From positions 6,555-70,554 of the forward strand of contig JAGCDJ010000043.1 of assembly GCA_017651185.1 (NCBI GenBank): 64,000 bases of DNA. The letters run 5' to 3'. The DNA is from Bacteroidales bacterium (lineage in GTDB: Bacteria > Bacteroidota > Bacteroidia > Bacteroidales > ML635J-15). The translations under genes and the position numbers were made by a program. Of the stretch, positions 21,739 through 25,065 are shown piece by piece (position 1 is the first letter of the stretch; each line of letters opens with the position of its first letter). The notes below the pieces were generated by a model. It saw only the letters and a program-made list of their open reading frames with translations, was not told the DNA's origin and did not search any database.

Positions 21739-22746
21739 CTACTTGAGTTCTAAGGTGTTGTAGTCGCCAATGCTAAGGTCGTACGACTTGCCCGAAAGTT
21801 TTGTATGGCTGCCAACCATCGAGTCGTGGATGTTCATGTTTTCGATTGTTGTGGCTTCCTGAATCACCGAATTGCAGATTACACTTCCGCAAATTGCAGT
21901 GCCTTTTCCTACCGAAACGTATGGACCAATCACCGAATTAGCAATCTTTACATTGTCCTCTATGTGGCAAGGTGGAATAATTGTCGAATTTTCGACTACT
22001 GCCGACTTTGCAAGCAGTTCGGAACTCTTGTCGCGGGCAAGCACGCGCTGGTGGGTTGCCACGGTGATGTTCTTGTTTCCGCAGTCGAGCCACTCGTCAA
22101 CTTGTGCAGGAACGAATTTTAAACCTTTGGCACGCATGTTTTCCAATGCCGTTGTAAACTGGAATTCTCCACTCTTGCGAATGTCGTTGTCGATGAGGTA
22201 CTGGAGTTCCTTCTGCAATGTTTCGCCAGACTTGAAGTAGTAAATACCTATTATGGCGAGGTCGGAAACAAACTGCTTTGGTTTTTCCTCGAAACCGGAA
22301 ATAACACCGTTGGCATCGGTTGTTACCACTCCGTATGCTTCGGGATGTTCAACCTTCTGCACCCAGATGATGCTGTCGGCATCGGCAGAAATCTTAAAGT
22401 TGGCGAAGAACAATGTGTCGGCAAAAGCCACAACAACCTTGTCGTCGAGCGATTCTGATGCGCACCAAATTGCATGTGCGGTACCAAGAGCTTCTTTCTG
22501 GTAATATATCTTCGGAGCAGCACCAACACTGCGTGCGATATTGCAAAGTTCATCTTCTACCTTCTTGCCGAAATTTCCGATTACAAAAGCAATTTCATCA
22601 ATTGGTTCCTCGCAAATCTGTGCGATTCCTTCAACCAAACGCTGTACTATAGTTTTGCCAGCCAACACGATAAGTGGCTTTGGAACTGTGAGTGTATGCG
22701 GACGCATGCGCGTGCCCATACCTGCCATTGGGATTACAATCTTCAT
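21739..22746 (-). CDS. Sugar-phosphate nucleotidyltransferase (glucose-1-phosphate thymidylyltransferase-like)
   Basis: PMAGMGTRMRPHT..PKPL, EEKP, WLDCG, C-terminal hexapeptide-like region. Confidence 0.85.
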   Translation of the reverse strand: MKIVIPMAGMGTRMRPHTLTVPKPLIVLAGKTIVQRLVEGIAQICEEPIDEIAFVIGNFGKKVEDELCNIARSVGAAPKIYYQKEALGTAHAIWCASESLDDKVVVAFADTLFFANFKISADADSIIWVQKVEHPEAYGVVTTDANGVISGFEEKPKQFVSDLAIIGIYYFKSGETLQKELQYLIDNDIRKSGEFQFTTALENMRAKGLKFVPAQVDEWLDCGNKNITVATHQRVLARDKSSELLAKSAVVENSTIIPPCHIEDNVKIANSVIGPYVSVGKGTAICGSVICNSVIQEATTIENMNIHDSMVGSHTKLSGKSYDLSIGDYNTLELK

Positions 22747-22954
22747 AAGAATCCTAAAATTAAATAATTGACAAAGGTAATACTTATAATATATAAGTGC
22801 GTTAAGCTATTCTTATTTTTTACCAACAATGGAATGTTGTAAAAAAGGCTAATAGGCACGAAGGCTTTTTGTAAATCATCAAGTAGGATTTCGAAACATA
22901 TAAGTGTAATTGTTTGAATATATGTATTCCATTAGAAAATCCACATCTTTTTAT

Positions 22955-22985
22955 TTTGCCATTCCCAAAAAATGTTGTAATTTTG
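22955..22985 (+). promoter_or_regulatory. Bacteroidota sigma-A promoter for rplY-pth-psd
   Basis: TTTG (22955-22958), 19-nt spacer, TAATTTTG (22978-22985). Confidence 0.7.
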
Positions 22986-23003
22986 CGCCCGATTTTGTTT
23001 AAC

Positions 23004-23041
23004 TGTGCGATGGGACCGCGAGTGCGTGGCTGAGTAGTACA
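23004..23041 (+). promoter_or_regulatory. Candidate L25 leader: 5S rRNA loop E mimic in rplY 5' UTR
   Basis: UGUGC/GUACA stem, 7x7 internal loop GAUGGGA/CUGAGUA, CCGCG/CGUGG stem, AGUG loop. Confidence 0.6.
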
Positions 23042-23061
23042 TAAATAATTTTATAAAAGTA

Positions 23062-23667
23062 ATGAAACATTTTGAATTGAAAGGTACAGTACGTACCGAG
23101 TTCGGCAAGAAGGCCGCAAAGCAAATCAAGAGAAGCAACAACATTCCGTGCGTAGTTTACGGCATCGAAGAGACCGTTCACTTCACAGTTGCAAGTGCTG
23201 ATGTTCGCAACCTTATCTTCACTCCTGATGTAATGTTTGCAGACCTCGACCTCGACGGAAAGAAGAGAATCACTTTGCTCAAGGAAATCCAGTTTGACCC
23301 GATTTCAGACCAGGTTATCCACATCGACTTCTACGAAGTTGACCCTGCAAAGCCAGTAAAGGTCCGCATTCCTTTGAAGCTCGTTGGTAACTCAGCAGGT
23401 GTAAAGGCCGGTGGTAAGTTGAAACACAGTCTCAAGAAGATCGCTATCAAGGGTATGATGGAAGACATTCCTAACGTATACGAAGTCAACATCGAAGACT
23501 TGAAACTTGGCGAAACCATCAGAATTAAGGACCTTAAGTCAGACAAGCTCGAATTTACCGAAAATGGTAGCACTCTTATCGCATCTGTAATGATTGCTCG
23601 TGGTGCATCTAGCGACGAAGGTTCTGAAGAAGGTGGCGAAGCTCCTGCAGAAGGTGCTGCTGAATAA
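23062..23667 (+). CDS. rplY: 50S ribosomal protein L25/Ctc
   Basis: RTEFGKKAAKQIKRSNNIPCVVYG, EIQFDPISDQVIHIDF, GVKAGG. Confidence 0.95.
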   Translation: MKHFELKGTVRTEFGKKAAKQIKRSNNIPCVVYGIEETVHFTVASADVRNLIFTPDVMFADLDLDGKKRITLLKEIQFDPISDQVIHIDFYEVDPAKPVKVRIPLKLVGNSAGVKAGGKLKHSLKKIAIKGMMEDIPNVYEVNIEDLKLGETIRIKDLKSDKLEFTENGSTLIASVMIARGASSDEGSEEGGEAPAEGAAE

Positions 23668-23691: not shown

Positions 23692-24255
23692 GTGAAGTAT
23701 CTCATCGTCGGGTTAGGAAATCCCGGAGCAGAATACAAGAATACAAGGCACAATATTGGATATACGGTGCTCGACGCTTTCGCAGAAAGCGCGGGCATCG
23801 CTTTTTTTGACAAGCGCTATGCCTATCGTGCCGAAACGAGCATAAAAGGACGTACGCTCATTCTCATAAAACCCACGACATATATGAACCTCAGTGGTAA
23901 TGCTGTAAGGTACTATATGAATCAGGAGAAAATCCCTGTCGAAAATGTATTTGTCATAGTTGATGACCTGGCTCTTCCATTCGGCACTATCCGAATAAAA
24001 CCCAAGGGAAGCAGCGGCGGACACAACGGATTGCAGAACATTCAGGACACTATCGGCACAAGTGAATATGCACGACTGAGGTTCGGCATCGGAAACGAAT
24101 TTTCGCGTGGCGGACAAATAGACTTTGTGCTAGGTGAATGGACAAAGGACGAAAGCGAAAACCTCAAGTCGCGTGTCGAAGTGGCAGTAAATGCCATAAA
24201 GGACTTTCCGTTAATTGGCATTGAGCGCACAATGAACACCTATAATAATAAATAG
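23692..24255 (+). CDS. pth: Peptidyl-tRNA hydrolase
   Basis: [31 protein letters not shown]. Confidence 0.95.
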
Positions 24256-24258
24256 ACC

Positions 24259-25065
24259 ATGCCAGCACCTAAACCACAAAAGCAGAACTACCGCAACTTT
24301 TTCTCGCGTATGGCAGGAAAACTATCCAATGCCAAAAAACCTAAGTGGTTTATCAAAGGTGTTATCAAACTATGGAAAAAGAGATACAAGATTGATCTTT
24401 TGGAATATGTAGTTCCGCCCAATGGGTTCAAGACCTTCAATTCTTTTTTTACACGCAACCTCAAGGAAGGTTCAAGGCCTGTAGGCGAAGGACTTGTCTC
24501 TCCTGTCGATGGCTTTATTTTTGACTTTGGAAAAATCTCTGGCGACAATAAGATATACGTTAAGTTTAAACATTACTATGTCGATGACCTCATTTGCGAC
24601 GAGTATGGCGACATTGCTTCGTATGCTGTATTGTACCTTTCGCCTGCAAACTACCATCGTGTACATGCTAGTTTCGACATGGAAATCACCGATATAAGTT
24701 ATTTGCCTGGCACATTGCGACCAGTAAAACCAAAAGTCGTTTACAAAAAGGACCGCGTCTATTGCCGTAACGAGCGAATAGTAATTCATGGTCAGTCGGA
24801 GTTTGGTAATTTCTATATGATTCTTGTCGGTGCGTTGTTCGTAGGCAAGACAAAATTGTCGTTCGACAGTGGTCTGCAGACCAACATTAAGAAAGGTGTT
24901 GCGTCCAAGCGAATATATGAAAATAGCATACATATAAATAAAGGTGAGGAAGTGGGTTATTTTGAAATGGGTTCAAGCGTAATTCTTTTTACAAGCGATG
25001 ACCGACTTGCTAATATAAAGTTGCCGCTCAATTCACCGGTTAGAGTAGGGAACCGTCTGGCCTAG
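24259..25065 (+). CDS. psd: Phosphatidylserine decarboxylase proenzyme
   Basis: FNSFFTRNLK, SPVDG, YLSPANYHRVH, NER, GYFEMGSS cleavage motif. Confidence 0.85.
   Translation: MPAPKPQKQNYRNFFSRMAGKLSNAKKPKWFIKGVIKLWKKRYKIDLLEYVVPPNGFKTFNSFFTRNLKEGSRPVGEGLVSPVDGFIFDFGKISGDNKIYVKFKHYYVDDLICDEYGDIASYAVLYLSPANYHRVHASFDMEITDISYLPGTLRPVKPKVVYKKDRVYCRNERIVIHGQSEFGNFYMILVGALFVGKTKLSFDSGLQTNIKKGVASKRIYENSIHINKGEEVGYFEMGSSVILFTSDDRLANIKLPLNSPVRVGNRLA

Follow-up and report, generated by a model that had tools for sequence, protein, structure and literature searches.

The hairpin that lies ahead of rplY, the gene for ribosomal protein L25, in the Bacteroidales genome studied here is probably a translational operator through which L25 represses its own synthesis. 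It is a candidate, and we infer both the binding by L25 and the repression from the comparison of sequences. The reading is suggested by an invariant internal loop, covarying helices, the identity of the loop to the core of 5S rRNA loop E, and a fixed short distance to a start codon without a Shine-Dalgarno sequence, a combination that fits a protein-binding translational operator. All positions below refer to the window, i.e. the whole stretch of 64,000 nucleotides that was analysed.

The hairpin and the gene behind it

The hairpin covers positions 23004-23041 of the + strand and lies 21 nt upstream of the ATG of rplY (L25) at 23062. Its layout agrees with the one given in the initial annotation, namely the outer stem UGUGC/GUACA, the facing strands GAUGGGA (23009-23015) and CUGAGUA (23030-23036), the stem CCGCG (23016-23020)/CGUGG (23025-23029) and the loop AGUG. 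The accompanying description of the facing strands as a 7x7 internal loop was not borne out, since 23014/23031 and 23015/23030 are pairs of the inner helix in the relatives and the conserved core is 5x5.

Redrawn in this way, the structure has an outer helix formed by the 5' arm GUGC (23005-23008, consensus GUGY) and the 3' arm GUAC (23037-23040, consensus RYAC). The window genome has a fifth outer pair, U23004-A23041, and its complete outer stem, as read in the sequence, is U23004-G-U-G-C23008 against G23037-U-A-C-A23041. The internal loop consists of the strands GAUGG (23009-23013, consensus RAUGG) and GAGUA (23032-23036, consensus DAGUA), which correspond to the 5' and the 3' strand of 5S loop E, respectively. 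The inner helix pairs GACCGCG (23014-23020) with CGUGGCU (23025-23031) and carries the apical loop AGUG (23021-23024), and the region distal to this helix is variable among the relatives in both sequence and length. All these parts are on the + strand. Within the inner helix A23015 and C23030 are mismatched in the window genome, and six close relatives (L003-L008) have G-C at this place.

The folding energy alone is no better than chance, as the minimum free energy of the single sequence is -18 kcal/mol with z = -1.32 and 20 of 200 shuffled sequences fold equally well. Unlike the folding energy, the comparative evidence laid out in the next section is in our judgement decisive for a conserved RNA element.

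The product of rplY (23062-23667, + strand) is a two-domain bL25 of the CTC type with 201 aa, covered by PF01386 (3.5e-21) and PF14693 (1.2e-19). Its best solved relatives are the bL25 chains of ribosomes (9i5t_Y with 3.5e-44 and 7jil_V with 1.4e-34). The gene is followed on the same strand by pth, encoding peptidyl-tRNA hydrolase (23692-24255, PF01195 with 1.4e-63), and by psd, encoding phosphatidylserine decarboxylase (24259-25065, PF02666), which starts 3 nt past the stop of pth (24255-24259). The upstream neighbour of rplY in the window is a nucleotidyl transferase gene on the opposite strand. An operon of rplY with pth and psd had been suggested. Its first part stands, as 91 of the 93 leader loci with an L25 match have a co-directional pth downstream, while psd follows pth only within the genus (17 of 19 same-genus loci against 0 of 11 loci of other families).

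Conservation and covariation

The motif recurs ahead of the L25 genes of related genomes. In a first draw L25 loci were taken from 30 of 31 related genomes, and the outer stem enclosing RATGG and AGTA is found 14-22 nt before the ATG in 24 of these 30 loci. All 19 loci of the genus have it, as do 5 of the 11 from other families, so that the conservation anticipated at the outset could be confirmed. The insert between the two loop strands is paired from both ends inwards through long complementary runs, the sequences of which are quite different among the relatives.

We aligned 12 of these leaders with MAFFT (alignment A2), found the alignment to be structurally consistent and used it as the source of model R1. 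RNAalifold on this MAFFT-only alignment predicts the same two helices. When the genome of the window is searched, R1 gives a single match at E<=10, and it is the leader (4.2e-11). With the same model the leader of the window scores 59.1 bits and those of the close relatives L003-L008 score 62-64 bits. Across the order, under stricter filters, R1 matched 45 of 151 genomes, always exactly once; some motif-bearing loci (e.g. in G019, G024 and G025) were missed in this search, and the true share of genomes is therefore above 45/151. The start of an L25 gene lies just downstream in 29 of 30 R1-matched loci, and the thirtieth (L035) is at a contig end. R1 applied to 58 loci gave 52 matches and none in the six loci where rplY is close behind its upstream gene. 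A second model, R2, matched 42 of 80 named L25 loci, with all matches on the gene strand and ending 5-25 nt before the L25 start.

Both helices are kept by pairing. We used two alignments for the covariation statistics, A3 with 47 distinct rows and A5 with 41 distinct rows, the latter being an independent set of named records. The paired cells amount to 97.8% in A3 and 96.8% in A5, and controls with slid partners reach 22-55% and 22-62%, respectively. The covariation scores are 0.629 versus a shuffled mean of 0.223 for A3 and 0.595 versus 0.230 for A5, with 0 of 500 shuffles reaching the score in either set. Six of the seven inner pairs in A3 and all seven in A5 are changed on both sides. The outer helix is nearly invariant (98.9% paired in A3, 100% in A5) and has one both-side pair change per set, plus one-sided variation of the U.G/C-G/U-A kind. 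A3 and A5 were fitted to the model and are thus biased toward the structure, a bias from which the inward pairing of the insert and the RNAalifold prediction on A2 are free. The leader has the conserved secondary structure with covariation support by which a ribosomal protein leader is recognized. In A3, 44 of the 47 distinct sequences open the inner helix with G.U, which fits an RNA of the + strand and not a DNA palindrome.

Resemblance to loop E of 5S rRNA

The letters of the internal loop are held while the sequences of the helices vary. We observed this in 79 parsed unique sequences, out of 84 unique ones among 94 in total, the other five falling outside the parsing pattern. The 5' strand reads R-A-U-G-G, with G at the first position in 57 and A in 22 of the 79 sequences, the positions 2-4 (A, U and G) invariant, and a single GAUGA. 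The 3' strand reads D-A-G-U-A, where AGUA is invariant and the leading letter is split into 50 G, 19 U, 10 A and no C among the 79. A Watson-Crick pair is avoided at this place, since C is never found opposite the last G of the 5' strand (0/79). The first pair inward of the loop is G.U in 65 and the second is G-C or A-U in 68 of the 79 sequences, and the conserved internal loop is for this reason taken to be 5x5. Between the two loop strands, the insert measures anywhere from 13 to 63 nt.

Five of the seven opposed positions of loop E are found in the leader. Loop E is a symmetric 7x7 loop, GAUGGUA/GAGAGUA, made of seven non-Watson-Crick pairs (PMC1976436; PMC1920249, Table 1), of which G75-A101 is described as the symmetry centre (PMC1976436). 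The 5S rRNA of the window genome (L001, its only assembled 5S gene, cut at the contig end) has GAUGGUA...GAGAGUA, and the E. coli fragment in Table 1 of PMC1920249 has the same loop E strands. The consecutive opposed positions G.A, A.U, U.G, G.A and G.G are the same in the leader and in the loop E of its own 5S rRNA, and they make up the half of loop E adjoining helix V together with the central G.A pair. The initial annotation had named these five pairs as identical, and exactly these five turned out to be conserved among the 79 unique sequences. The leader is accordingly a partial loop E, in which five and not all seven positions are kept across these sequences.

The leader resembles the arm of 5S rRNA formed by loop E, helix IV and loop D in its strand polarity, its hairpin topology and the five consecutive opposed positions. 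It differs from this arm in that the U.A and A.G pairs next to helix IV in 5S rRNA are G.U and a Watson-Crick pair in the leader, and it contains no other part of 5S rRNA, the 5S family RF00001 having no match to it at E<=10. The choice of a purine at the first position, and of G, U or A but never C opposite the last G, would be compatible with the non-canonical geometry of loop E (sheared, reverse Hoogsteen and bifurcated pairs).

Six 5S genes of the order have GAUGGUA/GAGAGUA in five cases and AAUGGUA in one, so the choice between G and A at the first loop position also exists in the true site. The loop E of the 5S gene L265 (genome G025) begins with A (AAUGGUA), and the leader of the same genome also has AAUGG. 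As for the first letter of the leader and of the genome's own 5S rRNA, we found AAUGG in both in one genome and an AAUGG leader with a GAUGG 5S in two genomes; 5S genes were found in 5 of 10 further genomes, a sample too small for a conclusion on co-variation.

Promoter and initiation region

The hairpin is predicted to lie within the transcript of rplY. We predict a -33 promoter element, TTTG, at 22955-22958, 19 nt upstream of a predicted -7 box TAATTTTG of the form TAnnTTTG at 22978-22985, both on the + strand. The arrangement TTTG / TAnnTTTG of 22955-22985 is what we take to be the Bacteroidetes -33/-7 consensus. Transcription is predicted to start near 22990-22992 (~22991). Of 87 distinct leader loci, 84 have a strict TAnnTTTG box that ends 11-50 nt ahead of the hairpin, which puts the predicted start upstream of the hairpin.

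Bacteroidota do not use Shine-Dalgarno pairing, and the A/U-rich spacer between the hairpin and the ATG (23041-23061, + strand) has no Shine-Dalgarno sequence. In 83 unique leaders the hairpin-to-ATG spacer has a median length of 16 nt, is 13-21 nt long in 68 of them, and is composed of 54% A and 33% U (87% A+U).

Distribution among genomes

The leader had been put forward as one of Bacteroidota, and it can be upheld for the order of the window but not for the phylum as a whole. In a phylum-wide draw R2 matched four of the five genomes from the order and none of the 146 others; because the filters were strict and part of the candidates was scored, weak variants outside the order could be missed. 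Within the order, 106 of 151 genomes have no R1 match under strict filters, and its absence from many of these genomes suggests that the regulation of L25 by the leader is dispensable.

The 42 named loci matched by R2 include Bacteroides stercoris, Phocaeicola coprophilus, Bacteroidaceae, Rikenellaceae, Paludibacteraceae, Dysgonomonas, Porphyromonas and Symbiothrix. The 38 named loci without an R2 match include Flavobacteriales, Crocinitomix, Anseongella, Draconibacterium and several Bacteroidales MAGs. A prs-like gene is located 2-202 nt upstream in all 38 of the latter. We considered whether the leader is linked to the loss of this upstream gene and rejected the idea, because prs is also upstream in 23 of the 42 leader loci, with a spacer of ~100 nt. 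The leader in these loci sits in a widened prs-rplY spacer, and it is not a marker of a relocated gene.

We also scanned the genomes of 185,579 species with an exact pattern consisting of the commonest variant plus ATGAAA and obtained at least 120 matches. Among the matches listed, the ATG of the pattern is the L25 start in 76 of 80. The scan adds, again among the matches listed, Marinilabiliaceae, Marinifilaceae, Carboxylicivirga, Saccharicrinis, Odoribacter and one Draconibacterium MAG, together with a few MAGs labelled Chitinophaga or Chlorobiota. The match in L162 was discarded as a chance occurrence of the pattern without a hairpin.

Some loci have other features in this region. In L072, labelled as a Prolixibacteraceae MAG, a TAnnTTTG-type box of its own is accompanied by a GC-rich hairpin between GUGUAUGCGG and GCUGAGUACCAC, ~70 nt before the L25 ATG. 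This hairpin looks like a diverged relative of the leader, to which R2 gave no score at E<=1. L081, L089, L097 (Crocinitomix) and L126 have a different short hairpin in the prs-rplY spacer, 10-15 nt before the L25 ATG, whose stems differ by record and which is followed by a ACACAAAC-like sequence, without letters resembling loop E. This hairpin may belong to a separate class of rplY leaders, or may signal processing or termination. The prs-rplY spacer of L116 is 202 nt long and occupied by short AACTTTA(T/C)A-type repeats in tandem.

Proposed function and alternative explanations

We suggest the following mechanism for the putative operator. The gene rplY would be transcribed from its own Bacteroidetes-type promoter, with the predicted start near 22991, and the 5' UTR would then present a hairpin whose 5x5 loop RAUGG/DAGUA may reproduce the five consecutive non-Watson-Crick pairs of 5S loop E. 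L25 in excess over free 5S rRNA would bind this mimic, and the leader would compete with 5S rRNA for the free L25. The hairpin ends at a fixed ~16 nt before the AUG of an initiation region that is A/U-rich, free of a Shine-Dalgarno sequence and presumably unstructured, and at this distance the bound L25 (22 kDa) could block the loading of the 30S subunit. Less L25 would be made as a result, and possibly less of the product of pth downstream. Among the points against the operator are the unexceptional folding energy, the A.C mismatch in the inner helix of the window genome, the absence of the element from many genomes of the order and the replacement of the two loop E pairs adjoining helix IV, by G.U and by G-C/A-U. 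The structures of L25 bound to RNA have L25 also touching the junction of loop E and helix IV.

The same mimicry and conservation would be expected equally if L25 binds the leader and the control is exerted by cleavage or decay of the mRNA, e.g. through a cut in the 5' strand of the loop, an explanation that we regard as unlikely. It draws on contigs of RNA libraries (shares of words 0.10-0.22), four of which were compared. The contigs cover rplY from 23007 (X7) or from 23011 (X4 and X6) onwards, i.e. from within or just before GAUGG, and those of X4 and X6 carry adapter letters directly before 23011, but contigs cannot show where an RNA starts or ends. Libraries often lack the first few nucleotides of a transcript owing to the way they are made. 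Among the contig pieces listed 22771-22998 is uncovered, and such missing cover proves nothing on the transcript start. If the RNA truly began at 23007-23011, which falls within the 5' half of the hairpin, the outer helix would be lost. An effect on initiation accounts for the narrowly held distance from hairpin to ATG more readily than decay does. We speculate, and hold it to be improbable, that the leader is a natural minimal recognition element for L25 (five loop E pairs and a helix closed by G.U) serving as a sensor of 5S rRNA in bacteria without Shine-Dalgarno pairing, where a site-specific cut that depends on protein or metal (ends at 23007-23011) would couple an excess of L25 to the destruction of the rplY-pth mRNA. 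We know of no ribosomal protein leader for which a cleavage control of this kind, coupled to L25 excess, has been described.

It is likewise improbable, in our estimate, that the hairpin is a structured element of the 5' UTR to which L25 does not bind, such as a stabilising stem-loop, a metal-binding motif or the site of another protein, with the likeness to loop E arising by coincidence. Such a coincidence would be consistent with only five of the seven pairs being kept and with the leader escaping RF00001. The ten loop letters, however, match the sole rRNA site bound by the product of the very next gene, and the element is found nowhere else in the genomes searched. A plain stabiliser, moreover, needs no invariant internal loop.

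A signal at the DNA level, i.e. an operator palindrome or an element of the initiation region of the rplY promoter, seems very improbable. The 5' arm GUGY-RAUGG does lie 11-50 nt past the -7 box, and the contigs of the RNA libraries begin inside this arm, but the distance from the box varies by 39 nt and the insert length is also variable (13-63 nt). It is pairing and not sequence that is kept, and the G.U pairs would be C/A mismatches on the other strand. Finally, a transcription attenuator, i.e. an intrinsic terminator in the leader, for which a hairpin in the predicted 5' UTR with A/U-rich sequence behind it would speak, is very improbable, given that the terminator search found no intrinsic terminator-like site on the + strand and that the spacer is richer in A than in U, with no conserved U tract.

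Relation to known leaders

We found no description of the Bacteroidales element in the databases and literature searched. Run against Rfam 15, as the initial annotation had envisaged, positions 22700-23300 of the window gave no match at E<=10. Twelve diverse relatives gave no leader match in Rfam 15 at E<=1, only one tRNA match and two sub-threshold sRNA matches elsewhere. A full-text literature search returned no publication on this element and only the work on E. coli, a 2024 review and Eckert & Weinberg 2020. The remark in the initial annotation that an L25 leader had been described for Gammaproteobacteria but not for Bacteroidota is in agreement with the literature found (PMC4408793, PMC7247131, PMC10931766).

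The closest system in function is the gammaproteobacterial rplY leader. L25 of E. coli represses the translation of rplY via a 5' UTR hairpin beside a weak Shine-Dalgarno sequence (Aseev, Bylinkina & Boni 2015, PMC4408793). The operator is the hairpin HII with a GUCG loop, in which the authors, in the passages concerned with it, see no resemblance to loop E (PMC4408793). The leader was extended in Gammaproteobacteria by Eckert & Weinberg 2020 (PMC7247131), and its features are confined to species with a short one-domain L25 according to the 2024 review (PMC10931766). The Bacteroidales leader is likewise predicted to lie in the 5' UTR of rplY. Both leaders place a hairpin before an initiation region without a canonical Shine-Dalgarno sequence, and both would serve autogenous translational repression by L25, which is demonstrated in E. 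coli and proposed here for Bacteroidales. They are unrelated in sequence and structure, and the L25 of the window genome has two domains. The reading of the sequence found no GAGA element in the spacer of the window. Homology to the HI/HII leader, with its GUCG loop and GAGA element resembling a Shine-Dalgarno sequence, is not indicated, as there is also no Rfam 15 match, a result that counts here provided that Rfam 15 includes that family.

Leaders that mimic rRNA are known for the ribosomal proteins L1, S8, L20, S15, L10 and others. The principle, by which the mRNA of a ribosomal protein carries a copy of the rRNA site for the free protein to bind, is cited in the E. coli study (PMC4408793). 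The Bacteroidales leader would share this logic of mimicry and differs in both the protein and the RNA. From the same lineage, Table 1 of Eckert & Weinberg 2020 gives L13 and S4 for Bacteroidia and mentions L25 for Enterobacteria only, and the supplement of that paper could hold more (PMC7247131). The L13 and S4 candidates, as presented there, are like the leader in being short, of the hairpin type, located before ribosomal protein genes and derived by comparative genomics, and unlike it in their genes and structures (PMC7247131).

Implications

Autogenous control of L25 is documented, as far as the cited texts go, only for E. coli and relatives with a short L25, and the operator there is unlike 5S rRNA (PMC4408793, PMC10931766). 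With the leader reported here, the widespread two-domain L25/CTC protein would gain its first candidate operator, and L25 its first case where the mimicry of loop E is plain from the sequence itself. It may mark the part of loop E that is under selection for recognition, i.e. five pairs within any flanking helix. The leader is present in cultured gut genera (Bacteroides, Phocaeicola, Dysgonomonas and Porphyromonas) and is thus directly testable there. How a bound protein blocks initiation in Bacteroidota, where translation starts without Shine-Dalgarno pairing, could be studied with it in a simple setting.
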